A stretch of 64,000 bases of DNA from Planctomycetaceae bacterium UBA7805 (GTDB lineage Bacteria; Planctomycetota; Planctomycetia; Pirellulales; UBA7805), in NCBI GenBank assembly GCA_002480485.1, contig DLCF01000027.1, positions 9,936 to 73,935 of the forward strand, given 5' to 3'. Positions within the stretch are counted from its first letter, which is position 1, and each line of letters opens with the position of its first letter. The notes under the pieces were generated by a model, which was given only the letters and a program-made list of their open reading frames with translations, had not been told where the DNA came from and made no database searches. Of the stretch, positions 8,841 to 35,257 are shown piece after piece. A program made the translations under genes and the position numbers.

Positions 8841-10004
8841 ATGGCTAGCAAACCGAAACATGTCGCTGTCCTGGGATCCACGGGGAGTATAGGTGAGAAC
8901 ACTCTGCAGGTGATTGCAAATTCGCAGGGCACGCTACGTGCAGCCGCACTTTCAGCGCACACGCGACTCGAGCGATTGATTGAGCAAGCAATTGCATTCG
9001 AGCCGGAGTGCGTAATCGCCACGTCACCGGTAGAGGCGGAAAAACAGGATTGGCAACGGTTACCTAACGGCTGTGAGTTACTGGTCGGGCAGGAAGAGGC
9101 GGAACGCGTCGTGCGCCGCTCGGAGATCGATATAATCGTGGCCGCTATCGTGGGAGCGGCAGGACTCCGTAGCACGTGGGCGGCAATCGAGGCAGGGAAA
9201 ACAATTGCCCTGGCAAACAAAGAAACGCTGGTGATGGCTGGTCCGTTAGTCACAGAGCTGGCCCGAAATACCGGAGCAATAATATTGCCCATAGACAGCG
9301 AGCATAGCGCTGTGTTTCAGGCACTGCAGGCGGGCCACTCATCGGAAGTAGAGCGGATTATCCTGACTGCCAGCGGTGGTCCATTTCGAGGTCAATCCCC
9401 AGAAAATCTCCATACCGTGACGGTTGATGACGCCCTCGCACATCCGACCTGGGATATGGGTCCGAAAATTACGATTGACTCGGCGACAATGATGAACAAG
9501 GCTCTGGAGATCGTTGAAGCGCGGTGGTTATTTGATTTGGAGCCCCGGCAGATTGAGGTGGTCGTCCACCCACAATCGATTGTGCATTCGCTGGTCGAGT
9601 TTATCGACGGATCGATCATTGCCCAGATGGGCCCGCCCGATATGAAATTGCCTATTCAGTATGCATTGGGTTGGCCGCGACGGACACCCCGATGTGGTAA
9701 AAAACTCTCATTCAATGAGGCACTCAGACTCGAATTCGAACCATTGGATACTGAACTTTTTCCTGCAGTACTACTAGGCATAGAGGCGGCAACCACTGGT
9801 GGAACTAGTGGCGTCGTGCTCAACGCGGCGAACGAAGCGGCGGTCGCGGGGTTTCTTGAGCAACAGATTAAATTTACCGATATTGTTCCTGCCTGCCGTT
9901 CCATTATTGATCAACACCATTTTGAACCAACGCCCAGTCTTGACCGACTACTGGCACTCGACCGCTGGGCACGTGAGGAGGTTTCCCGTTGGATATGCAC
10001 TTGA
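8841..10004 (+). CDS. dxr: 1-deoxy-D-xylulose-5-phosphate reductoisomerase
   Basis: VAVLGSTGSIGENTLQV, LANKETLV, PIDSEHSAVFQ, ILTASGGPFR and MNKALEIVEA are the full Dxr signature. Confidence 0.96.
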   Translation: MASKPKHVAVLGSTGSIGENTLQVIANSQGTLRAAALSAHTRLERLIEQAIAFEPECVIATSPVEAEKQDWQRLPNGCELLVGQEEAERVVRRSEIDIIVAAIVGAAGLRSTWAAIEAGKTIALANKETLVMAGPLVTELARNTGAIILPIDSEHSAVFQALQAGHSSEVERIILTASGGPFRGQSPENLHTVTVDDALAHPTWDMGPKITIDSATMMNKALEIVEARWLFDLEPRQIEVVVHPQSIVHSLVEFIDGSIIAQMGPPDMKLPIQYALGWPRRTPRCGKKLSFNEALRLEFEPLDTELFPAVLLGIEAATTGGTSGVVLNAANEAAVAGFLEQQIKFTDIVPACRSIIDQHHFEPTPSLDRLLALDRWAREEVSRWICT

Positions 10005-12085
10005 TTTTCGCAGCCTGGTACAGCATCGAAAACTGGCCTTATATCGCAATGGCCCTAGCCGGCCTCGGATTCGTGATCTTTGTTCATGAACTGGGTCACT
10101 TCGCGGTTGCAAAAATGTGTGGTGTGAAATGCGAAAAATTTTACATCGGGTTCGATCCTCCACTAAAAATTGGTCTTGGCAAATTCAGTTTCCGTTTACC
10201 GAGCGCGCTTTGGAAAAAGCAGTGGGGGGAAACCGAATACGGTATCGGCATCATTCCACTCGGTGGCTACGTGAAAATGCTCGGTCAGGATGATAACCCG
10301 TCGCGTGAAGCAGAGAAAATCCGCGACGCACGTCAAGCATCTCCAGAAGACGGGTCAGAGGCTACCGATTCCGAAAGAGAGAACTACCTCACGGACCCTC
10401 GAAGTTATGTGTCGCAAACTGTACCTGAGCGGATGGCAATCATTTCGGCCGGTGTAATCATGAACCTGATCTTCGCCTGGATCTTTGCAACCATTGCTTT
10501 TTCCCCTGGCTTTGGCGTGCCCTACATCCGCTGTGACGTTGCGTCGGTTATGCCGGGGGAGGCAGCCTACCAAGCGGGGATCCAACCGGGTGACCAAATT
10601 GTTGAAATCAATGGCCTAAAAAAACCAAGGTTTAAAGATCTTCGCCAGGAGGTAATCCTCGGGGATCTGGAAAATGGCATTCCCGTCACAGTCGATCGGA
10701 ACAACTCGGAAGGTGGAGTGGAAACATTTCAGTTCTCGCTGCTACCGCGACAAAGTGACGGCCAACTTTTGCGAATAATTGGCGTTTCGCCCGCCAGTAC
10801 CTTGCAATTGGCTGAGGCAGCGGTCGCCGTGCCAGGTAGCCCCGCCGACGCGGTTGCCGAAAATTTGCAGCCTGGAGATACGATAATCGAAGTAAATGGA
10901 GAAGGTGTTTCCAATTATGTTGAATATCGGGCTGCGCTTGCTAAGCACAATACCGAGCCGGTCACCATAACCCTCGCCCGCTTTGAAGATGAGTCGCCTG
11001 TCGAAGTAAAGGTGGCACCGCGGTTTCTTCGTAGATACGGCCTTGAAATGGAATTGGGACCCATCGTCGCGGTCCGTCCCGGTTCACCGGCAGCAGATGC
11101 CGGTCTTCAGCAAGGTGACCTGATTGAGGCGATCGACGGCGAGACACCGGGCGACCCGCTCAGTTTACCCCAACGGATTTCGGCTGATGACCAACTTAAT
11201 ATTGAACTTGAGGTGCGCCGTGGCGATACCCAAGAAAAATTTATTGTCCCACGCCGACCGGTTCCCTGGAAAAGCGATGTGCTCAAAACGATGGAACTTC
11301 CCTCGTTGGGCATTGCTTACGAAACGCTCAATACAGTTGCAGGAGTAACGCCGGATAGTCCGGCAGCCAGAGCAGGAATTATGCCGGGGGATCAAATTGT
11401 TGCCGTGGATCTTGACCCGGCAAACGAAGAGCAGGCGGCCAAAGATCGACTTCTTTTTCCGAAAGGACGGATGGTAACCCAGAACATTGGTGAGCCCGAT
11501 GGTGTCAGTTGGGTACTTTGGCTGCGGTCGGTTGCACAAAGCATCCAGGATGACACTGCGTTGGAAGTCACCGTCCTCCGCGAGGGCCAACAAGTGAAAC
11601 TCACAGTTCCACCGGCTACCCTCTCTGAGACGGCTATTCCGGGTCGTGGCTTTGTCTTTGTGCAGGAAACTGACACGATGCGGGCAGGTAATTTGACCGA
11701 AGCGATGGCGTTGGGATGGCGTGAAACAAAATATTCGATGCTGATGGTGTACCGTTTTCTGCACAAGTTGGTATCGGGGCAGGTCTCGCCACAACTGCTT
11801 GGCGGACCAGGCACGATTGCCGCGGTAGCGGGCATGTCAGCCAAGCAGGGCGCTGCCAGCCTGCTACTATTCCTGACGATGCTCAGCGCGAATCTTGCCG
11901 TTATCAATTTTCTACCGATTCCGGTACTCGATGGTGGACATATGGTCTTCCTTTTTCTGGAGGGCATCTTCCGTCGCCCTGTGAGCGAAAAAATTGTGAT
12001 TCCCCTCACCTGGGCCGGGCTCCTGCTCATACTCGCACTGATGCTTTTTGTGATCGGTCTCGATGTGAATCGATTCATGCTCTGA
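9989..12085 (+). CDS. rseP: RIP site-2 metalloprotease RseP (peptidase M50) with four PDZ domains
   Basis: HELGHFAVAK near the N-terminus and NFLPIPVLDGGH near the C-terminus. Four PDZ carboxylate-loop-like segments are present (AGIQPGDQIVEING, NLQPGDTIIEVNGE, AGLQQGDLIEAIDGE, AGIMPGDQIVAVD). Start is TTG 9989 or ATG 9995; it overlaps the dxr 3' end by up to 16 nt. Confidence 0.9.
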   Translation: MDMHLIFAAWYSIENWPYIAMALAGLGFVIFVHELGHFAVAKMCGVKCEKFYIGFDPPLKIGLGKFSFRLPSALWKKQWGETEYGIGIIPLGGYVKMLGQDDNPSREAEKIRDARQASPEDGSEATDSERENYLTDPRSYVSQTVPERMAIISAGVIMNLIFAWIFATIAFSPGFGVPYIRCDVASVMPGEAAYQAGIQPGDQIVEINGLKKPRFKDLRQEVILGDLENGIPVTVDRNNSEGGVETFQFSLLPRQSDGQLLRIIGVSPASTLQLAEAAVAVPGSPADAVAENLQPGDTIIEVNGEGVSNYVEYRAALAKHNTEPVTITLARFEDESPVEVKVAPRFLRRYGLEMELGPIVAVRPGSPAADAGLQQGDLIEAIDGETPGDPLSLPQRISADDQLNIELEVRRGDTQEKFIVPRRPVPWKSDVLKTMELPSLGIAYETLNTVAGVTPDSPAARAGIMPGDQIVAVDLDPANEEQAAKDRLLFPKGRMVTQNIGEPDGVSWVLWLRSVAQSIQDDTALEVTVLREGQQVKLTVPPATLSETAIPGRGFVFVQETDTMRAGNLTEAMALGWRETKYSMLMVYRFLHKLVSGQVSPQLLGGPGTIAAVAGMSAKQGAASLLLFLTMLSANLAVINFLPIPVLDGGHMVFLFLEGIFRRPVSEKIVIPLTWAGLLLILALMLFVIGLDVNRFML

Positions 12086-12232
12086 GCAGTCTGCGGAACC
12101 TCTGATTTGCTAGCATTGCGCGCAAAAGATCAGAATTCCCGTGGCGAGCGTCGCTCTTGCCCCCAATCGGCGAGACAGAGTAGAGTGCGACCTGAATCAT
12201 TGGGACTTTCCGGCGGAAAGGAATCGAAAGCC

Positions 12233-13297
12233 ATGGGAACGCCTTTGGCAGAACTTGCCCGAATTGTAGATGGGCGTATTTCGGGTGATGGAACCATCGA
12301 AATCGAAGAGGCTGCTACCCTTGCGCATGCCCAAGAGGGTGAAATCTCTTTTTTAGATAATACTGAAAAACAGAATCAACTCACGGAGTCGAGAGCGACC
12401 GCCTTTGTGGTGCCGATCGACTGCCACCCACCGAACGCAACGCTGATTCACGTGGAGGATGTCCAGTTGGCATTCGCCAAGATCGTGGAACATTTTCGAC
12501 CCCCGCGTTATGCAAAACGGATCGGCATCAGCCCCGCAGCCATCATCAGTCCGTCTGCAAGGGTCGGGGAAGACGTGGATATTCATTTGGGTGCCACGAT
12601 CGGCGACGATGTTACGATTGGAGATCGGGCAACGATCCACGCCGGCGTAACAGTGATGGCCGGTTGCCAGGTCGGTGAGGATGTGACGCTGTTTCCAAAT
12701 GCCGTACTCTACGAGAACACGGTGGTGGGAGCACGATCGATTATCCATGCAGGAGCCGTGCTCGGTGCGTACGGGTTCGGTTACAGCACCGAGGGTGGAA
12801 GGCATCATCTGTCCGCCCAACTCGGCTACGTGACCATCGGAAATGATGTGGAAATCGGTGCATCTACCACGATCGATCGGGGAACGTACGGGCCAACTGT
12901 AATCGGTGAGGGGACCAAGATTGATAACCTAGTGATGATTGCTCACAATTGCAGAATCGGTCGCCACAATATCATCTGTTCACAAGTTGGAATCGCTGGA
13001 AGCACGACCACTGGTGATTATGTGGTCATGGCCGGTCAGGTGGGTGTCCGAGATCATGTACACATCGGATCCCGCGCCGTGCTCGGTGCGATGGCCGGTG
13101 TTATCGGCGATATACCGGATGGCGAATGTTACGCTGGTATCCCCGCGACTCCAATGAGAGAACAGAGTTTTAAGCTGGCGGCACTCGCACGTCTCCCCGA
13201 AATGCGAAAGCAACTCAAGCGTTTACAGCGATTAGTCGAACAAAGGGAAAATAAAGCGTCGAACTCAGGAGACAAAAATCCGTCACACGCTGCATGA
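12233..13297 (+). CDS. lpxD: UDP-3-O-(3-hydroxyacyl)glucosamine N-acyltransferase
   Basis: LAELARIVDGR N-terminal domain followed by a long left-handed beta-helix of hexapeptide repeats, with IAHNCRIG and VGIAGST. The track ORF starts at 12107. ATG 12233 preceded by GGAAAGGAA gives the canonical N-terminus. Confidence 0.9.
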   Translation: MGTPLAELARIVDGRISGDGTIEIEEAATLAHAQEGEISFLDNTEKQNQLTESRATAFVVPIDCHPPNATLIHVEDVQLAFAKIVEHFRPPRYAKRIGISPAAIISPSARVGEDVDIHLGATIGDDVTIGDRATIHAGVTVMAGCQVGEDVTLFPNAVLYENTVVGARSIIHAGAVLGAYGFGYSTEGGRHHLSAQLGYVTIGNDVEIGASTTIDRGTYGPTVIGEGTKIDNLVMIAHNCRIGRHNIICSQVGIAGSTTTGDYVVMAGQVGVRDHVHIGSRAVLGAMAGVIGDIPDGECYAGIPATPMREQSFKLAALARLPEMRKQLKRLQRLVEQRENKASNSGDKNPSHAA

Positions 13298-22306: not shown

Positions 22307-23245
22307 TTACAGTTTTGCTCCAGTCCCCCGTAGTTCGCGGGGCAGCGGAAAAGTCACCTCCTCGGTGCGAATACTCCGCTCATCGATCACCGCTCCGAAT
22401 GTTTTTTCTAGATAGCGGCAGACGTCTTGCACGAGTGATTCAGGTGCACTCGCACCGGCGGTAATCAACACCGTCTTCACATCTTCAAACCAACTGTCCT
22501 GGATATCGCCGACCCCGTCTATCAGCTTGGAAGGCGTTTGGCATTCCCGCCCGATGTCAGTCAGTCGCTGACTATTGGAACTATTCTGGCTGCCAATCAC
22601 CAGCACAAAATCGGCCTCATCGGCAAGAATACGCACGGCCTCTTGACGATTTTGCGTCGCGTAACAAATGTCATCTTTCGGGGGACCCTGAATCTCGGGA
22701 AACCGATCCCGAAGCCTCGAGATAACTCGATTCGCATCATCAACCGAAAGCGTTGTCTGCGTCAGATAAGCCAAATTCCCCGGCTCCGCTACCTGTAATC
22801 GGTCGACATCTTCCGGTGTCTCCACCAGAAGAATTGCCTCAGGAGCTTCACCCATCGTGCCAATCACTTCATCGTGTCCATCATGACCTATAAGGACAAT
22901 CGTGCGCCCCTGTTTGGCGTAGCGAATTGCCTCCAGGTGCACCTTAGTCACCAGCGGACAGGTCGCATCGATCGCACGTAAATCTCTCGCTTTGGCCTGT
23001 TGCCGTATTTCTGGGGATACACCGTGGGCCGAAAAGAGCAGGGTCGCACCTCGGGGAATGGTGGAAAGGTCTTCAAGAAAAATAACGCCCTCCGATTCAA
23101 AGTGTTCGACGACGAATTTATTGTGCACAATCTCGTGATAAACATAGATCGGTGGCGGAAAGGCATCAATTGCCATCCGCAGACTCTCGATTGCCATCTC
23201 CACACCCGCACAGAAACCTCGGGGTGCAGCCAGGATAATTTTCAT
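22307..23245 (-). CDS. ispH: 4-hydroxy-3-methylbut-2-enyl diphosphate reductase (IspH/LytB)
   Basis: MKIILAAPRGFCAGVEMAIE, SAHGVSP, DATCPLVTKVH, IGHDGHDEV, ICYATQNRQ and IGSQNSSNSQRL include the three Fe-S cysteines. ATG 23245 was chosen over the track start at 23341. Confidence 0.94.
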   Translation of the reverse strand: MKIILAAPRGFCAGVEMAIESLRMAIDAFPPPIYVYHEIVHNKFVVEHFESEGVIFLEDLSTIPRGATLLFSAHGVSPEIRQQAKARDLRAIDATCPLVTKVHLEAIRYAKQGRTIVLIGHDGHDEVIGTMGEAPEAILLVETPEDVDRLQVAEPGNLAYLTQTTLSVDDANRVISRLRDRFPEIQGPPKDDICYATQNRQEAVRILADEADFVLVIGSQNSSNSQRLTDIGRECQTPSKLIDGVGDIQDSWFEDVKTVLITAGASAPESLVQDVCRYLEKTFGAVIDERSIRTEEVTFPLPRELRGTGAKL

Positions 23246-23378
23246 GTCTACCTTCTTAAACACTTTCGCAACGGTTCCAGGCAGCGATATCGGCAACCAG
23301 TCGCCTCCGTTATCATAATCCAATCCGAATCGACGTACCATCGCTTCGCCACTGACACGGCAACCTCGCGTGACTTTA

Positions 23379-24242
23379 TCATGTGGGATGCTCGGGCCGT
23401 TTGACGGATAACCAGCGGCAGATCACCCCTCGGAGAAAACTGGCAAGGGTATCGGCGGCACAGAGTGACGCCTGTTGCTCGCGATACCAGTCGCGCGCGG
23501 TTCCCGGACGACGTAGCGTTCCGCCGATCAATGCCCCCAGTCTTCCAGATACAGAGGGCTGCTCACCCGATTGCCGAATCTCAATGGGGGTCTGATCGTC
23601 CAATCGCTGACGAACGACACGGATTACCAGGCACGGTATACCCGACACCGCACACGTCGTAGCAATACCCATCGAAGTCGTGTCTGCAACATCCGCTTGG
23701 TATCTGTCTGCCAGTGCTATTCGCGAATCTTTATCTTCCGGAATCTGACGGCATGTATGCACGGTCCCGACTGTGAAGGCGTCAGGTTGCGATGTAGCCG
23801 ATCGCACGTCGATCTTTATTCGCTGTCCGTTGTCATCGATCACTTGCGAGGCCACAAGCAACGCGTCCTGTTGCAGTACGGCCCGAAGCGCGACAGAAAA
23901 TCCTGCAGCGATAACCCAATTTGGCGTGTGTGCCTGAACCAAAGCCTCTGTTGCCCTCTTTGCAGCTATCGCATCACCTGCCACTTGAGCGATTAATACT
24001 CTACGACCCTCAAGGTTACCCCGAAACAGCCGAAATTCCTGAGTGTGGATACGCACAACGTCGGTCAAGCAGTCTAACATGGAGCCGGTTTGGGCTTTCT
24101 CGTCGAGCACGATTGCCACATCGACTGCATTGCGTTGCTCTGTCGATTGAGAAGAAACCGTCGCAGCATCCTTTGCACGCGAGGAAAATTGCGATTTCGC
24201 TTGCTGTAGCAAAACGTGCTGAATCCACTGTTTCCAAACCAT
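23379..24242 (-). CDS. Pfs/MTAN/HpnG-like (PNP_UDP_1 fold) protein with substituted catalytic positions
   Basis: Hand alignment to E. coli MTA/SAH nucleosidase is colinear: [11 protein letters not shown].. / IGIIGAMEEEV.., [23 protein letters not shown] / [35 protein letters not shown] / DVIINTGSAGGL, and [16 protein letters not shown]...[10 protein letters not shown] / QAIAVEMEATAIAHVC...VRAISDVADQ. The start is taken at ATG 24242 (MVWKQW); the track start is 24314. Confidence 0.55.
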   Translation of the reverse strand: [287 protein letters not shown]

Positions 24243-24347
24243 GATCCGGACCTTAGTTGACGCGTCAAAACCTACTTCCGGTACGCGGAAACCCACCATG
24301 CGATTAACGTGCAAGAGCAGGTGCGTCGAAAGCGGCCAAAGTAGATC

Positions 24348-26207
24348 TCAATCAACCACCGAAAGCAAATTCGCTCCACGGGCCGCAACTTGACCGCACC
24401 TGGTTCCATTATCATCGACTGAAACCCAGCGGCATAGGGCTCGCAGTACCGCACAACGGTGCGTCAGCGGAACGGAGATCGATGCCGGAACCTCATCATC
24501 GGCAATCGATACGCCAGCCTCCATCAAAAAGTTGATACCCTCCGAAACTGACGGGTGATCTCGAAACCCACAATCGATTAAACAAGTCAAAGATAGCGCC
24601 GTGTCGTAAAGTGAATAAGGCGCAACGTCACTTTGAGCCTCGCATGAATGAACAGCCCAAGCGCCACCTGGATACTGATTCGCAAGCAGCCAGCTCACCC
24701 CTTGCACAATCAAAGGATCCTGTGGATAGATTCCCATACTTCGGACGGCTGCAAGCACATGTGCTGTGACAGCTACCTGCTGAGCAACGCTGTTTGAAAT
24801 CCAGGATCCATCGGTCATTTGTCTGCGGCGAAGAAAACGAATCGCGTGGGCGACTGACTGGTGCCCCAAATCCAGTCCAGAGTATGACAATGCTTCGAGG
24901 ACTCGAGCGGTTACCAACGGACAGTGATCCCAACTCCCGTCACGGCTTTGCGCGGCCAGTAATATTTCCTGTCGAGCTGCAATGGTGCGGATCAACCATT
25001 CTGGCCAGGGATACCCGGCGGGAGCATCGAGTGCGTCCGGATCTGCAATCAAATGCATTTCGGGAGGTAGCGCATGATCATCACCGTCGGTTTCGCACAG
25101 CAGACATGCGGCCCTCAACACCGCCGCCTGCTCTGCGATGGACAACTCACCAAACGAGGCGATGGCCAATGGCTTTGACGCCTTTTTGATCGCAGGTGCG
25201 GATATTGATAATCCCGAAAATAACAGTGCCTCCAGGCAGGTGGCAGCCACCTCGAAATCTGCCGGCAACAACGCATCAATGCTTTCAGTCTTTAATCGCT
25301 TTAGCAATTGCTGCAGTTCGGTGCTGTGGCTGGATGATCCACTGGGCCCTTCCTTAATCATTGCCCGGTAAAAATGCTCTCGAAAACTTTGACGGCCGGT
25401 CGATCCCGCGGAAGATTTAGCATCAGAGGTTTGAAACGGGTTGCATTGTTTTATTTTTTTCCACAAACCATGAGTGAATAACCGCATAGCGTGGTGCAAT
25501 GTTCGGGACTTTGGTACCTCCAACGGCAACCAGGCCACGCATGTTTCCAAGGTAGCAAGTTGCCGATGTACTTTGCGTTGCATTAGCTCGGTCCAGAGAC
25601 CCTGTTCGGCGGACGAGAAATGCTTCGATTCGGTGACACTATCGGCTTCAAAGGGAAGTAGTCCATACAAGGCCAGATAGCCCCGTGCCAGTTGATTGAT
25701 TTTTTCGGATCTATTTGTCCCCAAATCAAACCGCCATGCCGGGATCATTGCTTCATCCGTGGGCGATATTCCGAACCGTCTCAATGCGAAATCGATCAGA
25801 AGCGTACTGCTCAATGTGTCTTTATCAACAGGCCCTGAGGTCAATCCTTCGCTGCAATCCTGTGCATCAATTAAGCGATCAACGCACTCTGAGAAAACTG
25901 GTTCTAACGATGGCTCCTCGTGCAATCCTAGCCAGTGACTACACAACATGAACTCGGCGATCGATTGCGGTGTTGTACCTCCGGTGCATACAAAAGATCC
26001 GGTTTCACTTTGCCGATCGACAATCGCTTGACGAAGTTGAAGAATCGTGCGACGCAGAGGCCCGGAGAGCTCATGGCAGGATGCAACCCTCAGCGATCCC
26101 TGTTGCCGCTCCAGGTGGTCAAAGTGAACCACCCTTGGTGTAAACGGCTCTTCGTGAATCGCTAAACGAAAGATCTTGAGAGGCTCAATCATGACTTGAC
26201 CATCCAT
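24348..26207 (-). CDS. Highly divergent squalene-hopene-cyclase-like / prenyltransferase-squalene oxidase repeat protein
   Basis: 619 aa. Three C-terminal QW-like motifs are present (ILLAAQSRDGSW, AIRFLRRRQMTDGSW, VSWLLANQYPGGAW). They are interleaved with alpha-alpha-barrel helices resembling SHC (VTARVLEAL, AVTAHVLAAV, LYDTALSLTCLI). An N-terminal SHC-like helix pair is present (QAIVDRQSETGSF...AEFML). A DGDD tetrad lies at aa 374-377 (nt 25077-25088). Confidence 0.55.
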   Translation of the reverse strand: MDGQVMIEPLKIFRLAIHEEPFTPRVVHFDHLERQQGSLRVASCHELSGPLRRTILQLRQAIVDRQSETGSFVCTGGTTPQSIAEFMLCSHWLGLHEEPSLEPVFSECVDRLIDAQDCSEGLTSGPVDKDTLSSTLLIDFALRRFGISPTDEAMIPAWRFDLGTNRSEKINQLARGYLALYGLLPFEADSVTESKHFSSAEQGLWTELMQRKVHRQLATLETCVAWLPLEVPKSRTLHHAMRLFTHGLWKKIKQCNPFQTSDAKSSAGSTGRQSFREHFYRAMIKEGPSGSSSHSTELQQLLKRLKTESIDALLPADFEVAATCLEALLFSGLSISAPAIKKASKPLAIASFGELSIAEQAAVLRAACLLCETDGDDHALPPEMHLIADPDALDAPAGYPWPEWLIRTIAARQEILLAAQSRDGSWDHCPLVTARVLEALSYSGLDLGHQSVAHAIRFLRRRQMTDGSWISNSVAQQVAVTAHVLAAVRSMGIYPQDPLIVQGVSWLLANQYPGGAWAVHSCEAQSDVAPYSLYDTALSLTCLIDCGFRDHPSVSEGINFLMEAGVSIADDEVPASISVPLTHRCAVLRALCRWVSVDDNGTRCGQVAARGANLLSVVD

Positions 26208-26328: not shown

Positions 26329-26412
26329 AATCACCCATGGACTGCTATCGATCCGATAACCCCCTTTCGCTAGACTGTCGCCTCCAAACTGTAATTGACT
26401 CGCGCGATTTTT

Positions 26413-28131
26413 ATGATGCTAGCTTGCCATCGCTTCCTGCTGTTCGCATTGATGCTGCTGTGTGGCACTGCTTGGTCGCCGCCGTCGCGCGCCGATGTCC
26501 TGGTCATTTGCCCGGATGCATTCACCGATGCCATTGGTCGGTGGATCGCGTATCGCACCGGTCAGGGACATCGGATCGTACTGATGGCAAACGATCGCTC
26601 GGCTTTCGTGCTGCAGAAGAAAATTCGCGACTATGCGACAAAGCGACCTGTAAACGCCGTGGTGCTGATCGGCGATGCTAGATCGGGCGATGTGAGTCAA
26701 AATTTAGGCGGTGCATGCCTGCAGCATTGTGTGCCCACACACTATCGTAAAGCCACCGTGATTACGCCTTATGCCGGGGATCGACAAATTGCCACTGATT
26801 ACCCGTTTGGCGATGTTGACGGAGATGATGTCGCAGAAATTCCAGTGGGTCGCCTGCCCGTGGATCGCCCAGAAGATTTGATGCGAATGGTTCAGCGGAT
26901 AATCGATTATGAGTCAAATAGCGACTTCTCACCCTGGAGAAGGCAAATCAACCTGGTCGCCGGTGTCGGGGAATTTGGGCCGATCATTGATTCGATAATC
27001 GAGGGCACGACACGTGCATTCCTGATTTCAAAAATTCCGCCAGCCTATCGAACAACGATGACGCAAGCCAATTGGAAAAGCCCGTATTGTCCACCGCCGG
27101 AGCAATTTAGAGACACCGTGCTAAACCGCTTGAATGAAGGTTGTCTGTTCTGGATTTATCTTGGCCACGGACAGATCGACTCTCTGGACAAGGTCCGCGT
27201 GCCGGGCGGACAATTTCCGATTTTGCGGAACACCGATGCTGACCGCATCGCTGCGAATCGAGGTGCCCCGATCGCGTTACTTTGTTGCTGCTACGCCGCA
27301 GCTTTTGATGCTCCTAACGACTGCCTAGCCGAAGCGATGTTGGAGAGTAAAGCAGGGCCGATAGCGGTCATCGGGGGGTCACGTACAACAATGCCGTATG
27401 GAATGACGGTGCTGGGCGAGGCGCTGATCAATCAACATTTCCAGAAACAGCAGACCACCTTGGGCGAGATTTTGAACAACGCAAAGAAACACATGGTCAG
27501 TGACGATGCAGGCGGTTCAAATCGAATCGCGCTGGATCGCCTAGCGGGGTTGCTCGGGAATACAAAGCAGCAACGGACAGCAGAGCGCAGAGAGCATGCC
27601 CAACTCTTCAATCTGTTGGGAGATCCCCTTTTAAAAATTGACGCATCCCGATCAGTCGTGGTGCGAGCACCGCGTCTGGTCGATCAAGGCGCAACGGTAA
27701 CCGTAGAAATCGACGCGCCCATGAAAGGATTGGCAACCATAGAAATCGTCACCCGACGCGGTACTTTCACCACGCCACTGGCGAACCGCACGCATTATGA
27801 CTCTTCCCCGGATGGCCGGAAGGAATATCTGCAATCCTATAAAAGGGCGAACGATCCACGTCTGGATCAGCAGCAGTGGCCTGTCGTGAAGGGTCTGCAG
27901 ACGTTCACAATGCAGTTGCCACCTGATTTTTCCGGACCCTGCCATGCGAGAGTGTATATTTACGGTATGCAACAGCATGCTATGGGATCTACTGATATTT
28001 ACGTGCAGCAGCAAAAGTCGCCGGAGCAATCTGTGAAGCGGACCGATCATGCAAACCCCTCTGCGGACTACTCGCTGCGTGCCGTGATCAACGTTGCAGA
28101 AAATCAAAACTCACGGCTGAGATCACGATAA
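26413..28131 (+). CDS. Secreted peptidase C25 (gingipain)-like cysteine peptidase family protein
   Basis: Signal peptide MMLACHRFLLFALMLLCGTAWSPPSRA. The C25 N-terminal pattern is present (VLVICPDAF...W..YR...G....L...........IRDY......AVVLIGDA...VP...........D.PFGDVDGDDVAEIPVGRLPV...EDL..MV.RIIDYE). The catalytic-type His lies in WIYLGHGQ and the Cys cluster in ALLCCCYAAAF. The track start at 26395 is TTG; ATG 26413 is used. Confidence 0.65.
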   Translation: MMLACHRFLLFALMLLCGTAWSPPSRADVLVICPDAFTDAIGRWIAYRTGQGHRIVLMANDRSAFVLQKKIRDYATKRPVNAVVLIGDARSGDVSQNLGGACLQHCVPTHYRKATVITPYAGDRQIATDYPFGDVDGDDVAEIPVGRLPVDRPEDLMRMVQRIIDYESNSDFSPWRRQINLVAGVGEFGPIIDSIIEGTTRAFLISKIPPAYRTTMTQANWKSPYCPPPEQFRDTVLNRLNEGCLFWIYLGHGQIDSLDKVRVPGGQFPILRNTDADRIAANRGAPIALLCCCYAAAFDAPNDCLAEAMLESKAGPIAVIGGSRTTMPYGMTVLGEALINQHFQKQQTTLGEILNNAKKHMVSDDAGGSNRIALDRLAGLLGNTKQQRTAERREHAQLFNLLGDPLLKIDASRSVVVRAPRLVDQGATVTVEIDAPMKGLATIEIVTRRGTFTTPLANRTHYDSSPDGRKEYLQSYKRANDPRLDQQQWPVVKGLQTFTMQLPPDFSGPCHARVYIYGMQQHAMGSTDIYVQQQKSPEQSVKRTDHANPSADYSLRAVINVAENQNSRLRSR

Positions 28132-28136
28132 GACCA

Positions 28137-30893
28137 TTACCGACTGCACTGCTCATCAATCTCAACCCCGGATGCAGCGATGGGGGGGGTGGAAGAGTGC
28201 GATCTCTCCTCACGCATGCCGGCTTCAGAATTGGCAATGTGCTGCCCGGAGATAGAGCGTGTGATGACCTCTTCAAACAGATTTTCCACCTTGTGGCCAA
28301 GCCGACAGGTTCGGGTGAAGGAGGAAATGAAATGTGCGGCCTTGCTCGCATCAATCGTTAGTGGTGGTTGGATTCGCAGCACCAGAGGATTAGAACGAGT
28401 AACTTGCGTATAAATATGATAATGCTCTAGCAGGATCTGCATTTGAAATACGGTGGGAAAGCTGGCGATCATCGCATCCATGCCCCGCATCATATACTGG
28501 AGCATCCCAGTCGAGTCGGTACGCTTCAAATGCGTTGTCACAGATTCTGCCAAAGGCGAGAGTTCTACACCAATCATCAATCCCTGTCCGCGGATGTCCT
28601 GAAAATAGTCCGGTAACTCCTGTCGAATTTCATTCAAGCCTTCCAGAATTTGAAATCCGCGTTGGGCAGCATTTTCCGCCAATCTTTCCTCAACGAGTGT
28701 TTCAATCGTCGCCAGGCCCGCAATACAAGCAAGACTTCCACCGCCAAAAGTGCTAGTGTGCAAGGCAAATCGCTCAACTGTCCCGTAGGCTTTCATCCAC
28801 AGATCACGGCGTGCCAACATGGCACCAATCGGCACCAATCCTCCACTGAGGCTCTTTGCAACACAAAGAATATCCGGTTCAATCGCCGCCTGTTCGCTCG
28901 CGAACATCGTCCCCGTGCGACCCATTCCCGTTTGGACTTCATCGGCAATCAAAAGCGTTCCGGCCTGCCGGCATATGCGCTCTGCTTCAGCCAGATAACC
29001 CGCCGGGGGAAGAATCATTCCTCCCTCTCCTTGGATCGGTTCCACGATGAATGCTGCCATATTGCGTGAGGCGAGAGTGCGTTCCAAAACCTCCAGATTG
29101 CCATACGGAATCGGGTGACAATCGGGCAGTAGCGGTGCAAATGGTTGTTGATAACCACGATTTCCAGTAACCGAGAGCGCACCAAGTGACTTGCCATGAT
29201 AAGAACCATGGCAATAGATAATGCCGGTTCGGCCCGTTGTGGCACGTGCCAGCTTTAGCGCAGACTCCACTGCCTCGGTCCCGCTGTTACAGAAAAATAC
29301 CATTTCCAAACCTGCCGGGGCAATCGATACCAAACGCTCGGACAAAGACGCCGCGTGAGGATTGATCGCCGCTGGGGAAAATCCGGGAACACTACTTTCT
29401 AGGGCCGCGCTGATCGCCTCAACAACTCTAGGGTGATTGTGACCGACATTAAGTGAGCCGAAACCCGAAACAAAATCGAGATAGTGATTTTCATCGGCAT
29501 CGGTGATTACCGTATCCTGGCCTCGTACGAAGGTCTTGTTGAGTCCACCCTGCTCGGCAAGATTGACCAATACCGGATTTACATATCGCTGAAAAAGGGT
29601 TCGCGCTCGGCGATTTTTAATTTCTTCTTCTTGCTGAATCCGCTGCTTGGATTTCTGATCGGTTGGCCGCTGCGTATCAGTTTGCGCTTGGCCGTAGGCA
29701 GGATGACCGTTGGTCGCGGATCCAGCGATCCTTTCTCCGGTAGTCGCCGAGCAGTGTTGGCCGGTAGCGAAATTTTTCTCCGCCAGACGACGACCAACTA
29801 CTTTATTCATGCTTGCCCATAGTGAATCGGGAACCGGTCGACCGTAGGAAGAGAGTTGCGAAAACGAAAATCCATGCCGAGTGGCGATGGATCCGATTTC
29901 TCCAATTCGCTCGATACTTAAATCACGCCCCAAAGAAAAACTTTCCGCGCGATCTTCCAGAGCCAAATTGATGGTTTCAGCCAGGCACCCCGGTACCAGA
30001 CCGAAGTGGAAACCGAGTAGCATCGATTTGCCTAGAAAACCTCTAGGTACGTCCACCAGGCCTCCAGAAACGACGAGAACATTGCTTCGACGTCGTGTCG
30101 ATCGGGTTACATCCGCAGGAACTCCCACGTCAATCACCACGCTGCCTGCCTGCAGCATCTCTTGCACGATACAACTGCCGCTCGAGGTGGCGGAAAGAAT
30201 CAATCGGGATTTCGCCAGGGCGGTCGGGATTTCAAAAACGAGCTCACTCTGAAGTTCAGCTGCAATTCGTGTTGCTCTCGGGGAAGGGCGACGGGCCACC
30301 AAGATCATTTCTCCTACCTTGGTCCGTAACATCCGGGCGATTGCCGTAGCGATGCTGCCGGGTAGACCGATCACGGTAACCGTCTCTTTGGTGAGGTCTA
30401 TCGACAGTTCACTGCAAGCATGTTGCAAATTTTTTAGCGCAGCATAAACCGTCAGGCTGTTTCCTGTGGTCACGGGAATCGGACTATTTTCTGCGATGTA
30501 CTGGCCGTGTCCGCCGACGACACTTGTGAGTGAACCGAGACCAACAATACCTGCACCCCAGTCCGCAGCCATATCTACAGCCGCTTGTGTCTGTTCGATG
30601 GCTGTTCCCGGGTCTTCTAAGATCTGCTTTGGACTGCATGGAATTTCGTACACGCGTCCTTCAGTCTCGCAACCGGTTTTGGTTTGCAGCCCCGAGAACT
30701 GATCAAGAACGATGGGGCGGTCTTTTGCGCGACCTCCGAAGGCAACCCCTTCCGCCATGCGACCTTGGACGAAATCGCATATCTCTAGCAGATTGCCATT
30801 TTCCCAATGCGACAGCAACTGCCCGCCATCATCCATCTGCCACAGAGCTTTACTTTCCTCTGAGAGAGGATGCACTACAAAGGCGAATTTCAT
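28137..30893 (-). CDS. Fusion protein: N-terminal acyl-ACP reductase (AAR)-like NAD(P)-dependent thioester reductase domain plus C-terminal class-III (omega/ornithine/putrescine-type) PLP aminotransferase
   Basis: aa 1-345 align colinearly with Synechococcus AAR as I recall it: [11 protein letters not shown] / [24 protein letters not shown] / [25 protein letters not shown] / [38 protein letters not shown] / [35 protein letters not shown] / [20 protein letters not shown] / MFACFAEAMLL, and [10 protein letters not shown] / IGEASVRHGF. The AAR catalytic Cys equivalent is C303 (nt 29985-29987). aa 434-875 form the class-III aminotransferase: [64 protein letters not shown], and the PLP Lys in [12 protein letters not shown] (K680, nt 28854-28856). 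An 88-aa low-complexity linker joins the two halves. Confidence 0.8.
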   Translation of the reverse strand: [918 protein letters not shown]

Positions 30894-31445: not shown

Positions 31446-34052
31446 ATGTCGGAATTAAACCGATCAAGTTTTTACGATCGATTTTACCTTTGGATCTTTA
31501 TTGCATCCCTAATATCGATTTATCCGATCACGCTGAGCGTCATCAAATCGGAAGAAACCAACAATAACAATATCAAGCAGTGGCTTCCGAAGGACAATTT
31601 TGATGAAACGAAAATATACGCTGCATTCAGGGCACATTTCGGCACCGATGAATATGCCATCGTCAGTTGGACAGGATGCACGCTAACCGATCCGCGACTC
31701 TCCGAGTTCGCGTCATTTGCCCGCAATTATCAGAATGCGTCTGGTGATAAGCTGTTTGCAAAAGTCACTACCGGTCCCGAACTATTAGAAAAGTTGCAAG
31801 CGAAGCCTTTCGATTTAAGCGAAAGGCTCGCTCGTCAGCGACTGGAATCAATCCTGATCGGTAAAGACGGCGAATCGAGTGCCGCGGTGATTGAATTAAC
31901 CGAGGCAGGAGATAACGATCGACGAGAGGCCATTGCGTCCCTTAGAAGCATACTGATCCAAGATTTAAAAATTCCGGCCGCTGAAATTCATATGGCCGGA
32001 GATGCGGTAACTAACGCTGCGGTGGATGTTGAGAGTCAGAGGGCCACCGATTCGCTTGTTGGCTACTCGATGCTGATTGCCCTCAGTTGTGCTGTCACAA
32101 GTTTCTTCTTCGCCCACGGTCGTCGTTCCAAGCACTGGATACGCGGTCTGACGTACAGCTTCACGCTGGCCATGCTGATTTTCTTTGTTTCTGTTTACAG
32201 CGCTATGCTGGCGCAATCGCTGGTGCCGATTTTTGGCGGACGTGTGAATCTCGTACTGGTTGTGATGCCCGTCTTAATTTACGTTTTAAGTCTGTCAGCA
32301 GGCGTTCACCTGATCAACTATTACCAGGATACGGTGCGTGAAAAGGGTGTTGCTCATGCCCCTGCAACGGCCATCCGACTCGGCTGGATGCCCTGCACGC
32401 TGGCGGCTGGAACGACGGCCATAGGGCTTGGGTCCCTCTCGGTAAGCAATATCATTCCGGTCAAGGATTTTGGAAAATTCTCCGCGATTGGAATTATCGC
32501 GAGTCTGGGCGTACTGTTTTTACTGCTGCCGGCGCTACTTGTTCTAATTCAAAGATTTTCAAAGAAAGCGAATGAGGGCCTCTCTGCGCAATCGCAAACC
32601 GAGCTCCAGGGAATCTTCGACCAAGTAGTCGAATGGTTGGCTGCAAAGGTTATTGCGCACCGATGGCCAGTGCTTTGCGTCTGTATCGGGCTGCTCATTT
32701 TCTTCGGTTGCGGGTCACTTTATATCAATACTTCAGTCAAGCCAGCCCGTTTTTTTGACCCAAAGCATCGGTTAATCACCGATTACGAGTGGCTGGCCAG
32801 CCCGGAACGTTTCGGCAATCAAATCCCTCTTGAGATTGTGGTCGCATTCAACCGAAAAAAGTCTACCTTGACGACGCTGGGGCAGATGCGGCTGATCTCG
32901 GCGATTGAAAAAGACCTAAAACAGAACCAATCGAACCTGATCAGCCACTCCATTTCGGCCGCCACTTTTGCACCAGAGCTAGATGAGGGCCATTACACGC
33001 AGTTCGTGATGAATAAACGTTTGGCAGCTAATCGCGCTGATTACCATAAAGTTCATTACTACAGCTATGAAAACGCGGCACATGAGGTTGCACCGGTCCC
33101 GCACGCAACTGATAAAGCGAAAGGGGGGACAGAAGACGAACCTCAAGCAGGAAAGGACCTTTGGCGAATCAGTGCCCGTATTCGCCCCGGAGAGAAAGAC
33201 TATGACGAGGTGATTCTCCAAATCGAAGAGCACGTAAACGGATTTCTGGCGAAGCGAAGTGCCGCAAGTCAGCAAAAACAGAAAAAAGCAAAACAAACTT
33301 TTGAAAAATTCAAGGAACTGGTTAAGCAAAAAATCGCTGAAGAAAGCGCTGCCTGTACCGAATCGGAAAACAAGCAAGGATGCCTTGAACAGATCAAACA
33401 AAAATATGATTTGATTGTAACGAATCGGACCAAAAAATTTGACAACTTTTTGCGGGCGGCGGCAGATGATGCAGTTGGAGTCGATGTCCAATACACGGGA
33501 ATGGTACCCCTATTTCACATCGCACAGCGTGAATTACTGAATGGGTTGTTTAAGAGCTTTGTGATCGCTTTTTTTCTAATCGCCGTAATGATGATAATTT
33601 GGTTCCGCAATTTTGCATCGGGACTGGTATCGATGCTGCCGAATGTTTTTCCGGCGGCGGTTATCTTTGGCTGGATGGGGTGGACCGATCGAATTGTTGA
33701 CATTGGATCGATGATGACTGCAAGCGTCGCGATGGGAATTGCGGTGGACGATACGGTCCACTTTCTTACTTGGTTCCGCAGGGGAATTGCGGCAAAGATG
33801 ACTCGCGCTGAAGCGGTGCTGTATTGTTATCGACGCTGCGCATTAGCGATGACGCAAACCACTTTGATCGCCGGACTTGGTCTGGTCATCTTCTCGCTGA
33901 GTTCTTTTCAGCCGGTATCCCAATTTGGCTTGTTGATGTTTTTACTGTTGCTTGCAGCGCTGGTGGGCGACCTTGTTTTCCTGCCCTCTCTTTTGGCTAG
34001 TCCCGCAGGCAAACTGTTTCAAGTTAAAAGTGATCCATCTGCGCCCCGGTGA
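31446..34052 (+). CDS. MMPL / HpnN-like RND-superfamily lipid exporter (12 TM, two periplasmic loops)
   Basis: 868 aa. The topology is 1+5 / 1+5 TM with large loops after TM1 and TM7. The TM4 region is VMPVLIYVLSLSAGVHLINYY and the TM10 region is MTASVAMGIAVDDTVHFLTWF, the charged RND proton-relay type. The second loop carries a Lys/Gln/Glu-rich predicted coiled-coil insert (nt 33247-33420). Confidence 0.8.
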   Translation: MSELNRSSFYDRFYLWIFIASLISIYPITLSVIKSEETNNNNIKQWLPKDNFDETKIYAAFRAHFGTDEYAIVSWTGCTLTDPRLSEFASFARNYQNASGDKLFAKVTTGPELLEKLQAKPFDLSERLARQRLESILIGKDGESSAAVIELTEAGDNDRREAIASLRSILIQDLKIPAAEIHMAGDAVTNAAVDVESQRATDSLVGYSMLIALSCAVTSFFFAHGRRSKHWIRGLTYSFTLAMLIFFVSVYSAMLAQSLVPIFGGRVNLVLVVMPVLIYVLSLSAGVHLINYYQDTVREKGVAHAPATAIRLGWMPCTLAAGTTAIGLGSLSVSNIIPVKDFGKFSAIGIIASLGVLFLLLPALLVLIQRFSKKANEGLSAQSQTELQGIFDQVVEWLAAKVIAHRWPVLCVCIGLLIFFGCGSLYINTSVKPARFFDPKHRLITDYEWLASPERFGNQIPLEIVVAFNRKKSTLTTLGQMRLISAIEKDLKQNQSNLISHSISAATFAPELDEGHYTQFVMNKRLAANRADYHKVHYYSYENAAHEVAPVPHATDKAKGGTEDEPQAGKDLWRISARIRPGEKDYDEVILQIEEHVNGFLAKRSAASQQKQKKAKQTFEKFKELVKQKIAEESAACTESENKQGCLEQIKQKYDLIVTNRTKKFDNFLRAAADDAVGVDVQYTGMVPLFHIAQRELLNGLFKSFVIAFFLIAVMMIIWFRNFASGLVSMLPNVFPAAVIFGWMGWTDRIVDIGSMMTASVAMGIAVDDTVHFLTWFRRGIAAKMTRAEAVLYCYRRCALAMTQTTLIAGLGLVIFSLSSFQPVSQFGLLMFLLLLAALVGDLVFLPSLLASPAGKLFQVKSDPSAPR

Positions 34053-34120: not shown

Positions 34121-35257
34121 TTAGAAATAAGATTGCAACGTCCCGCGTCTGCGAACGTCAAGCGTGGAGCAGTGAAAGGCACCGCCGTATACGTAGTGGT
34201 TGGTGTACGGACAAGGAATAGGCTTGAAACCCCATTCCCGAAATTTCTTGATCAGGGGCTCCTGACTTGCCTCGCAGATGACCCGTTTTTCATCGAGCAT
34301 TAACACATTCATACTCAGCCAAGCACTGCTAAGGTCGATCATTTGCACCATCGTGCTGACCGGTGCAGGTGCCGGAAGAAGCTCCCAACTTTTGAGTACC
34401 TCCGGGGCATCACTAGGATCAAAGAAATCGGGGCTGTAGAGGGCACGTCCTGGGCAGAGCGGCACGAAGGTCGTGTCAATATGCATCGGCTGACGAGATT
34501 TTGTTTTGATCTCATGAATTGAAAAGTCACCGCCAAGATGGCGACGGAGCCAATCGATGCCAAAACGATTGGTAACGTTGCTACGCGTTACGAACAGGTC
34601 GCGACCACAGCGGGCAAAATCGGCTGCATCAAAACAACACTCGGTTTCATTGATCGCAAATTGAAGTTGTTCTCCTTTTTCCGGAAGTTGCCATTTTTCA
34701 TTATAAAGCGAGTCGGCCAGACGAGGGCGAGGGGCAGCTGTCCACCGCGCACCCGCCTTAAAATATTCGTGAAGCAGACTGCGATAAGCGTTCATCTCAA
34801 AATAGCGACTACGCCATGCCATAGGCGTTTCTATAATCTCATCTCCAATGACCAACAGTCCGTCACGAGGATTAGCAATATTGTACGCTGACTCGACCTC
34901 CCAATCCGGAGTTCGAAAACTTTCCGTTTGAGCGATAGGATCGGGTCGCCTGACTTTTACGCCCTCTGCCTCGAGAATAGCAACGAATTCGGCTTGATCT
35001 CGCTGTGCTGCCTGAACCATGGCATCCGGTGCCGGTTTGCCCGAAAGCAATTTAAGCAGTTCCCAAGATTCTTGGGGCGTAGCTGCCTGCAGCGTGACAT
35101 GCCAAGGAGGAACCGCCCCGCCATCCACTCGGCCGACAATTACCTCCTCTAGCGGATCCCACTCGTTGAACGAGCAAACAACCGATTTTTCTAAGTTACT
35201 TCGTTGCGTTTCGGCAGCTTCCACGTCGGTTCCTGATTTGCTGCCAGCTATCGCCAT
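34121..35257 (-). CDS. Arginine:X amidinotransferase (AGAT / StrB1 family; glycine amidinotransferase-like)
   Basis: Near-colinear with vertebrate AGAT as I recall it: FNEWDPLEEVIVGR, VKVRRPDPI, EIIETPMAWRSRYFE, CFDAADFARCGRDLF, PMHIDTTF, WLSMNVLMLDEKRV, and the C-terminal GGAFHCSTLDVRRRGTLQSYF. The catalytic Cys, His and Asp positions are all present. Confidence 0.9.
   Translation of the reverse strand: MAIAGSKSGTDVEAAETQRSNLEKSVVCSFNEWDPLEEVIVGRVDGGAVPPWHVTLQAATPQESWELLKLLSGKPAPDAMVQAAQRDQAEFVAILEAEGVKVRRPDPIAQTESFRTPDWEVESAYNIANPRDGLLVIGDEIIETPMAWRSRYFEMNAYRSLLHEYFKAGARWTAAPRPRLADSLYNEKWQLPEKGEQLQFAINETECCFDAADFARCGRDLFVTRSNVTNRFGIDWLRRHLGGDFSIHEIKTKSRQPMHIDTTFVPLCPGRALYSPDFFDPSDAPEVLKSWELLPAPAPVSTMVQMIDLSSAWLSMNVLMLDEKRVICEASQEPLIKKFREWGFKPIPCPYTNHYVYGGAFHCSTLDVRRRGTLQSYF

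Follow-up and report, generated by a model that had tools for sequence, protein, structure and literature searches.

Does a gene of isoprenoid biosynthesis that stands behind relatives of two hopanoid genes mark an active lipid pathway, or has something else been kept there? The question is raised by three minus-strand genes in a 64,000-nucleotide (nt) stretch of the genome of the Planctomycetaceae bacterium UBA7805 (contig DLCF01000027.1; hereafter the window, to which all coordinates refer unless a locus is named). They encode a protein resembling squalene-hopene cyclase (SHC; 26207-24348, a 619-amino acid (aa) open reading frame, ORF), an HpnG-derived protein with the fold of purine nucleoside phosphorylases (PNP) and methylthioadenosine/S-adenosylhomocysteine nucleosidases (MTAN) (24242-23379, alternative start 24314; 287 aa), and a canonical IspH, the 4-hydroxy-3-methylbut-2-enyl diphosphate (HMBPP) reductase (23245-22307, alternative start 23341; 312 aa). 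An earlier note on this DNA had read the trio, for which ORFs are indeed found at these positions, as a tightly stacked, atypical isoprenoid-lipid operon. Our analysis makes a different answer the more probable one: the locus would be a re-purposed, probably non-catalytic pair of hopanoid-enzyme descent lying beside ispH, and not a biosynthetic operon. What the sequences show is an adjacent pair that is being maintained: both members descend from the SHC and HpnG lineages, no longer have the residues that define the chemistry of these enzymes, are under purifying selection and adjoin each other in two independent genomic settings. The family names given in the note hold at the level of domains (SQHop_cyclase_N/C, PNP_UDP_1/HpnG and LYTB), and its remark that both non-ispH members are far from canonical is borne out by scores far under the cut-offs and by the replacement of catalytic residues.

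The only Pfam matches of the SHC-like protein are weak ones to SQHop_cyclase_N and SQHop_cyclase_C (43 and 56 bits). On the hopene-cyclase equivalog model TIGR01507 it reaches 60.9 bits against a cut-off of 431.1, with residues 432-563 alone matching. An AlphaFold2 (AF2) model, in which the beta domain is predicted confidently, retrieves the SHC structures 3sqc, 2sqc and 1sqc first in Foldseek (E ~1e-14), then oxidosqualene cyclase and then drimenyl-diphosphate synthase. Pfam and the structural comparison together place a beta-gamma double alpha/alpha-toroid fold, that of class II terpene cyclases, in this protein. The phylogenetic placing proposed in the earlier note as a check likewise puts it in the SHC superfamily, in Foldseek as in a neighbour-joining (NJ) tree, and not among alpha-macroglobulins. 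An alpha-macroglobulin identity was rejected, thioester domains appearing as distant single-domain Foldseek matches and SHC ranking first.

The close family of the SHC-like protein is small (~9 clusters, all from Planctomycetota metagenome-assembled genomes (MAGs) or metagenome contigs) and a large gap separates it from canonical SHCs. An exhaustive profile search gave 4307 relatives at E <=0.001. The best of these beyond the close family are proteins of 550-720 aa that lack the DxDD motif and have an N-terminal extension in common (MNTxELVRF...ELxxPxRxAIxxARQ); a word-indexed homolog search with a 30-sequence alignment retrieved none (0) of the members of this wider DxDD-less clade. In the NJ tree the window family forms a long branch within the DxDD-less clade, and the sister group of that clade consists of canonical SHCs of the type of P0009 (L015:1-779 and 10001-13179, where a canonical SHC with DTDD adjoins hpnH and a second gene with faint SHC-domain matches lies ~9 kb upstream). 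The window protein has the traits of the clade: the GWxF..YPD-DxDD loop is deleted, the N-terminal extension carries the conserved R52 and R59, and an 'LPP' insertion follows where the motif has been lost.

When 158 sequences are aligned jointly, the GWxF..N..YPD-DxDD segment proves to be missing altogether from both the DxDD-less clade and the window family. Active-site positions were tabulated for 50 canonical, 63 DxDD-less and 9 window-family sequences. The canonical ones were picked for having the motif, so that D374, D376 and D377 are 100% conserved in them by construction; W489 is conserved in 98% of them and F365 is aromatic in 94%. The 63 DxDD-less sequences vary at the D376 position and have Thr, Ser or Ala in place of W489, and 61 of them have lost the F365 loop. 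In the window family D374 has become Ser, D376 is variable, D447 has become Leu or Val, and H451, W489 and Y495 are variable. Aligned by HMMER with the Alicyclobacillus acidocaldarius SHC (1gsz), the window protein itself has Ser for W489 and Ala for Y495; the equivalents of W169, Y420, W489, Y495, F601 and Y609 are lost or exchanged for small or polar residues. No D.DD motif is conserved across the nine family members. A local 'DGDD' is present at residues 374-377 of the window protein (about 25076-25087), and was rejected as a catalytic motif because it is found in no other family member; that its numbering equals D374-D377 of A. acidocaldarius SHC is a coincidence. Few positions are conserved specifically in the clade (R52, R59, R175, the LPP insertion and W594), the remainder being structural residues of the QW type. 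The SHC-like protein thus derives from the SHC lineage and lacks the residues that define SHC chemistry.

These data bear on an alternative that we consider unlikely, a cryptic terpenoid pathway in which the SHC-like protein would still be a cyclase or some other enzyme acting on terpenoids, with a Glu or Asp at the D377 position as its acid, the HpnG-like protein would process a nucleoside-lipid by another mechanism, and a co-transcribed ispH would supply precursors. An acidic residue is found at this position in 44 of the 63 members of the clade and in seven of the nine of the family, MstE-type cyclases function with DxD instead of DxDD (PMC12414744), some planctomycete 'SHC-like' proteins have been proposed to convert other precursors into unknown polycyclic triterpenes (PMC7306690), and the pair adjoins an isoprenoid gene. 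However, the position of the general acid, D376, is variable, Ala or Phe replaces the acid at the D377 equivalent in two family members, and the loss of the F365 loop and of the cavity residues listed above also speaks against such an enzyme, as does the scarcity of family-specific invariant residues besides the structural QW-type positions. The window was found to contain neither a prenyl-chain synthase nor a squalene synthase nor a partner of the radical-SAM type, and the earlier statement that hpnH, hpnC/D/E and squalene synthase are absent from it was confirmed among ORFs of at least 200 aa.

The middle protein gives a PNP_UDP_1 match of 45 bits. Its best NCBIfam model is that of HpnG (TIGR03468; 47.6 bits, cut-off 187.1), and it scores 26.5 bits on the MTAN model (cut-off 169) and 19.6 bits on the futalosine hydrolase model (cut-off 124.7). 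The TIGR03468 cut-off alone is a weak criterion, because the HpnG of a genuine hopanoid cluster (locus L031) also falls below it, at 103.5 bits. An MTAN fold is indicated by the family alignment and by a profile search of the PDB (MTANs 4gmh and 3bl6; HMMER). The top Foldseek match of the AF2 model is the Helicobacter pylori MTAN/futalosine hydrolase (template modelling (TM) score 0.76), to which the model adds an N-terminal helix (MVWKQW...) and long C-terminal helices. The genuine HpnG proteins of L031 and of a second locus, L026, retain VDME and ISD and have the C-terminal extension in common with the window protein. Since this extension aligns with genuine HpnG and HpnG is the best NCBIfam model, the middle protein is derived from HpnG and not from MqnB or MtnN. 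The futalosine (MqnB) context offered in the earlier note as another explanation was discarded together with MtnN, with scores far under the cut-offs, catalytic residues lost, a C-terminus of the HpnG type and no mqn-type families among the window ORFs of at least 200 aa.

The residues E172-M173-E174 of MTAN correspond to D-T-T in the window protein (family alignment, HMMER) and S196-D197 to R-Q, the Asp column being occupied by Gln, Arg, His, Lys, Glu or Asp across the family; the equivalent of S76 is Phe. The HpnG-like protein has therefore lost the residues for ribose binding (Glu) and for protonation of the leaving adenine (Asp), both of which are kept by genuine HpnG, and this also argues against a cryptic pathway. 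With the SHC-like protein lacking DxDD and the aromatic residues, and the HpnG-like one lacking the catalytic Asp and the ribose-binding Glu, an active operon for isoprenoid-lipid biosynthesis finds no footing here. One relative of the HpnG-like protein, P0029 (L006:248-1126, followed by gltX; 31% identical to the window protein), retains DME and SD and has HpnG as its best model (115 bits); among HpnG-like relatives that have the family's N-terminal helix and C-terminal extension, it alone keeps both catalytic motifs. Its contig begins 247 nt upstream of the gene, and the end of a short ORF located there does not resemble the SHC-like protein.

Have the two genes been kept, or are they being lost? 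The order of the trio, whose conservation in relatives the earlier note had put forward as a check, is maintained in ~10 contigs that come from MAGs of marine Planctomycetota/Pirellulales, even where the SHC-like protein is as little as 36% identical. The arrangement in common comprises, in this order, an MMPL transporter gene, a PigE-like reductase/aminotransferase gene, a C25-like peptidase gene on the opposite strand, the SHC-like, PNP-like and ispH genes and a gene for a DUF7133 protein; the nearest loci belong to Planctomycetota, Pirellulales and 'Planctomycetaceae' MAGs. Both odd ORFs are intact and of conserved length in the ~10 contigs. Compared with locus L001, the window proteins are 55% (SHC-like), 72% (PNP-like) and 75% (C25) identical, against 92% for IspH, 89% for the PigE-like protein and 90% for the DUF7133 protein. 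In pairs with unsaturated synonymous sites, the ratio of nonsynonymous to synonymous substitution rates (dN/dS) lies at 0.31-0.32 in the SHC-like and at 0.16-0.20 in the PNP-like gene; for ispH it is 0.04-0.08, the value being 0.08 in the one unsaturated pair that includes this gene. The dN of the odd genes is 4-6 times that of the neighbouring enzymes, and their substitution rates are the highest of the neighbourhood. With dN/dS of ~0.3 and ~0.2, both genes are therefore selectively maintained, under purifying selection, yet far less constrained than the enzymes that surround them. Purifying selection on both is also what a cryptic pathway would predict, whereas the raised dN fits it poorly.

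These rates make it very unlikely that the locus is a decaying remnant, that is, a former shc-hpnG-ispH cluster in which shc and hpnG are non-functional and on their way out. The trio does resemble genuine clusters such as that of L031, catalytic residues are lost in both proteins, the two genes evolve faster than all others of the neighbourhood, and the window protein departs even from several positions of the DxDD-less clade (e.g., G120E, W122L and Y139D). However, intact full-length ORFs persist in ~10 lineages that are saturated at synonymous sites, with dN/dS of 0.2-0.3, well below 1, and the pair recurs in another lineage. Moreover, a large DxDD-less clade encloses the family, so that the catalytic loss is ancient and not ongoing. 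The earlier note had left the choice between a remnant or re-purposed hopanoid module and a different terpenoid pathway; a re-purposed module is the better of these options, and the part of the proposal that implied an active pathway did not hold.

The recurrence of the pair was seen in the genomic contexts of the DxDD-less clade, which come from one metagenome scan (25 loci). In four of these, on contigs of planctomycete type (L016, L021, L024 and L027), mnmG, a response regulator gene (HTH_17 plus receiver domain) and a histidine kinase gene precede the SHC-like gene, and a yacP-like gene follows downstream on the opposite strand in L021, L024 and L027, L016 ending at the SHC-like gene. In L024 and L027 a PNP-like gene begins 18 nt after the SHC-like gene. 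Its product is 29% identical to that of the window over the full length and is degenerate too, with GRI for DME and TR for SD. The proteins of L024 and L027 are thus ~29% identical to those of the window and their flanks are entirely different. Recurring as it does in two distant lineages whose flanking genes are unrelated, the adjacency is reasonable evidence, at the level of gene arrangement, for a functional coupling of the SHC-like and HpnG-like products. Synteny inside the marine clade says little about function, since every flanking gene is equally syntenic there.

The kinase and regulator genes invite a further explanation, to which we give a low probability: the pair would act as a sensor or regulator of end product that binds hopanoid, squalene or an adenosyl-lipid and modulates IspH, the methylerythritol phosphate (MEP) pathway or a two-component system, so that the adjacency to ispH would be functional. 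It would account for ligand-binding folds retained without their chemistry, for the response regulator and histidine kinase genes immediately upstream of the SHC-like gene in the four loci, and for the conservation of the ispH adjacency across the marine clade. On the other hand, the window encodes no histidine kinase or response regulator, nor any homolog of the kinase, regulator, mnmG or yacP of these four loci; the kinase/regulator context may be mere synteny, because housekeeping genes (mnmG, yacP, hisD and argG) share it; and ispH has a conserved upstream block of its own, described below. An anti-phage module combining a two-component system with a PNP effector (Detocs-like) was weighed on the same contexts and is extremely improbable. 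A PNP-fold gene does lie downstream of the kinase/regulator pair in L024 and L027, and P0029 weakly matches the PADLOC 'PN-superfamily' effector; but PADLOC gives no match for the SHC-like, PNP-like and C25 proteins of the window or for the proteins of L024 and L027, the PNP catalytic residues are lost, and the genes sit in a stable core-chromosome context among housekeeping genes.

Is ispH, then, part of a transcription unit with the pair? The identity of IspH is clear (LYTB, 310 bits; NF002188, 428.3 bits against a cut-off of 420; TIGR00216, 311.9 against 187.85), and its translation contains GFCAGV, ATCPLV, ICYATQNRQ, GHDGHDEVIG and SSNSQRL, with the Cys triad of the [4Fe-4S] cluster, the His and the Glu present. 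The gaps had been put at 33-105 and 37-133 nt, depending on the start codons chosen. These ranges are arithmetically right, and the starts conserved among homologs select the larger values: alignments of homologs fix the start of the HpnG-like gene at 24242 (MVWKQW) and that of ispH at 23245 (MKIIL), so that the true gaps are 105 nt (24243..24347, minus strand, between the SHC-like stop and the HpnG-like start) and 133 nt (between the HpnG-like gene and ispH). The same alignments place the start of the SHC-like gene probably at 26192 (MIEPLKIF), five codons inside the listed ORF, which gives 614 aa. Spacers in the relatives examined are similar, roughly 80-170 nt. With gaps of 105 and 133 nt, the three genes are therefore not tightly stacked.

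The 133-nt spacer contains a conserved non-coding block of 31 nt, TGGTACGTCGATTCGGATTGGATTATGATAA (23310..23340, minus strand), with the consensus TGGTRC-N5-WTY-NN-ATT-NN-AYTAWGATRA in all six of the lineages compared (6/6). Synonymous sites are saturated among these six lineages, and nearly all of the 20 invariant columns of the spacer lie within the block. Its pattern is unique in the window, with 0 occurrences expected by chance. The block is non-coding, because stop codons in the relatives disrupt the longer ispH ORF that would extend across it, and no consensus RNA structure was obtained for it. A -10-like TATGAT within the block lies ~66 nt before the ATG of ispH, and the block is, on its sequence, probably an ispH promoter or operator. 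By comparison, the six orthologous 105-nt spacers between the SHC-like and HpnG-like genes are poorly conserved apart from a short CTTG core. Consensus scans found no terminator in either spacer and promoter-like sites at the level of chance relative to shuffled sequences, and Rfam gave no match in the spacers; transcription may read through into ispH from the upstream genes. In the TMED10 MAG (L011:11885-12010 and 12911-13084), both spacers have short tandem duplications (GCAACGTTTGCAACCTGCAA; GGCGAGAAATT repeated), which the other lineages lack.

Only in one marine clade does the pair adjoin ispH. Among the metagenome loci scanned, no ispH adjoins DxDD-less SHC-like genes outside this clade, and in the diverged loci (L016, L018-L021, L023, L024 and L027) no ispH is nearby and the other neighbours are housekeeping genes. 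In five other loci, ispH lies immediately upstream of a canonical SHC with DVDDTA. The wide gaps, the promoter-like block before ispH and the restriction of the adjacency to one clade thus tell against the word 'operon'.

The MEP-pathway genes of the window are dispersed over its 64 kb, with dxr (8841-10004, plus strand) and ispD (44448-45200, plus strand), as well as ispH, far apart and the first two among housekeeping genes. The surroundings are those of a marine planctomycete core chromosome (dxr, rseP, lpxD, lpxI, ftsH, ispD, tyrS, prfB, ffh and trmD), which further encodes DUF1080-type and DUF7133-HEAT-cytochrome c proteins. Divergently from the SHC-like gene runs a gene of the C25 (gingipain/PorU-like) peptidase family (26395-28131, plus strand), kept in all relatives and evolving fairly fast (dN/dS 0.12-0.23). 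It is followed by two divergent neighbours, the gene of a PigE-like 918-aa protein (28137-30893, minus strand) and that of an MMPL/HAE3 transporter of the resistance-nodulation-division (RND) type (31446-34052, plus strand). In the 918-aa protein an N-terminal domain that is Shikimate_DH-like and NAD(P)-binding is joined to a class III aminotransferase, and its score with the PigE model is 780 bits, against a cut-off of 850; the HpnN matches of the transporter are weak. This PigE-like/MMPL pair, syntenic in all relatives, could be a module for long-chain amine or lipid export. Two further ORFs, at 60427-63975 (minus strand, 1182 aa) and 34121-35257 (minus strand, 378 aa), have no Pfam match at E <=1e-4.

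We thus favour a re-purposed pair, for which the following mechanism may be proposed. The two genes are co-inherited immediately upstream of the housekeeping gene ispH, which has its own conserved upstream element, and their products would function jointly, binding an isoprenoid or hopanoid-type lipid, or its nucleoside-lipid intermediate, without catalysis. Their role would then be one of sensing, scaffolding or hand-over instead of chemical transformation. The position beside ispH in the marine clade might go back to an ancestral hopanoid-cluster neighbourhood, reflect a loose functional link to isoprenoid supply, or be due to chance.

Several points weigh against this interpretation. The first is the acidic residue at the D377-aligned position in most members of both the wider clade and the window family: because it persists, the SHC-like protein may have residual acid-dependent activity. 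Lipid binding, a complex of the SHC-like and HpnG-like proteins and shared transcription of the pair are all predictions drawn from the sequences, the AF2 models are moderately confident (pLDDT 71 for the SHC-like protein), the tree was built by simple NJ and carries no support values, and the synteny within the marine clade carries little functional information. Nor is the pairing universal. L021 has no HpnG-like gene, and four loci carry another conserved protein of ~280-297 aa in the slot of the HpnG-like one, directly 3' of the SHC-like gene (L018:2050-2574, L019:3223-3564, L020:2405-3298 and L023:1834-2667). These proteins belong to a conserved family of their own, with a hydrophobic segment at the N-terminus, no Pfam match and no relation to the PNP fold. 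The possibility that the downstream ORFs of L020 and L023 encode diverged PNP-like proteins was rejected (hhalign probability <1%).

A bolder version of the favoured interpretation is speculative and, in our view, unlikely: in planctomycetes, dead SHC and dead HpnG paralogs taken over from hopanoid biosynthesis would together form a module for the sensing or hand-over of hopanoid or isoprenoid lipids, wired to two-component systems in most lineages and placed beside ispH in the marine clade, where it would couple the triterpenoid status of the membrane to precursor supply.

What is the significance of such a pair? SHC homologs in genomes and metagenomes are routinely taken as evidence for hopanoids or novel triterpenoids, and this feeds the interpretation of biomarkers. 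A clade with the fold and without the chemistry would, if confirmed, be a systematic false positive in SHC surveys, and the practical lesson is that SHC-domain matches belonging to the DxDD-less clade should not be tallied as cyclases. The pair is pseudoenzyme-like in its residues and stems from two consecutive hopanoid enzymes. Should it indeed form a lipid-binding module that has no catalytic function, it would rank among the rare instances in bacteria where the enzymes of two consecutive pathway steps were jointly turned into pseudoenzymes, and would be an entry point to the way planctomycetes sense or traffic hopanoid lipids. According to a 2025 review (PMC12673574), most planctomycetes make hopanoids, and it is therefore plausible that this genome has a canonical shc at some other place. 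In the literature that could be searched, we did not meet the pairing of an SHC-like gene with a degenerate HpnG-like one, and the main texts of PMC7306690 and PMC12414744 mention neither hpnG nor ispH.

Finally, how does the locus compare with known systems? The complete canonical hopanoid clusters L031 and L026 were recovered from the metagenome with a DxDD-less query. L031 (6863-17168) reads ispH, shc (770 bits, DVDDSA), hpnA, hpnG, two dehydrogenase genes (ADH), hpnC, hpnD and hpnE. As the earlier note had proposed, the window echoes such a cluster, with ispH, an SHC-family gene and an HpnG-family gene together on one strand in both, but it does not mirror it: the order here is SHC-like, HpnG-like, ispH, the window contains no hpnA, hpnH or hpnCDE, both non-ispH proteins are catalytically degenerate, and ispH has its own conserved upstream element.

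Compared with SHC (HpnF/Shc; A. acidocaldarius 1SQC, 2SQC and 3SQC), the window protein has the same toroid fold, QW-type repeats in the beta domain and a similar length of ~620 aa, and both Foldseek and HMMER give SHC as its best match. It differs in the absence of DxDD(TA), of the active-site loop, of the aromatic residues of the cavity, of the D447/H451 pair and of the C-terminal GFPGDFYLGY wall, and in the presence of the N-terminal extension, conserved R52 and R59 and the 'LPP' insertion. The middle protein is like HpnG (TIGR03468) in its PNP/MTAN fold, its C-terminal helical extension and its position directly after an SHC-family gene, and differs by DTT for DME, RQ for SD, Phe at S76 and the extra N-terminal helix. 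With the MTA/SAH nucleosidase MtnN and the futalosine hydrolase MqnB it shares the fold, and these are its closest solved structures (TM ~0.76).

The literature describes uncharacterised 'SHC-like' or 'unknown function' clades of triterpene-cyclase homologs in the Planctomycetes-Verrucomicrobia-Chlamydiae (PVC) group and other Gracilicutes (Santana-Molina et al., 2020, PMC7306690; Molecular Biology and Evolution 2025, PMC12414744). The planctomycete SHC-like proteins are said there to keep the critical catalytic residues and probably to use another precursor (PMC7306690). The DxDD-less clade described here, compared with them by their published description, lacks the critical residues; it may be another group or a subset, or the published statement may fail for these members. 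The published proteins are SHC homologs of 550-700 aa, uncharacterised and numerous in Planctomycetes, and the window protein is nested in a large clade of proteins of this kind.

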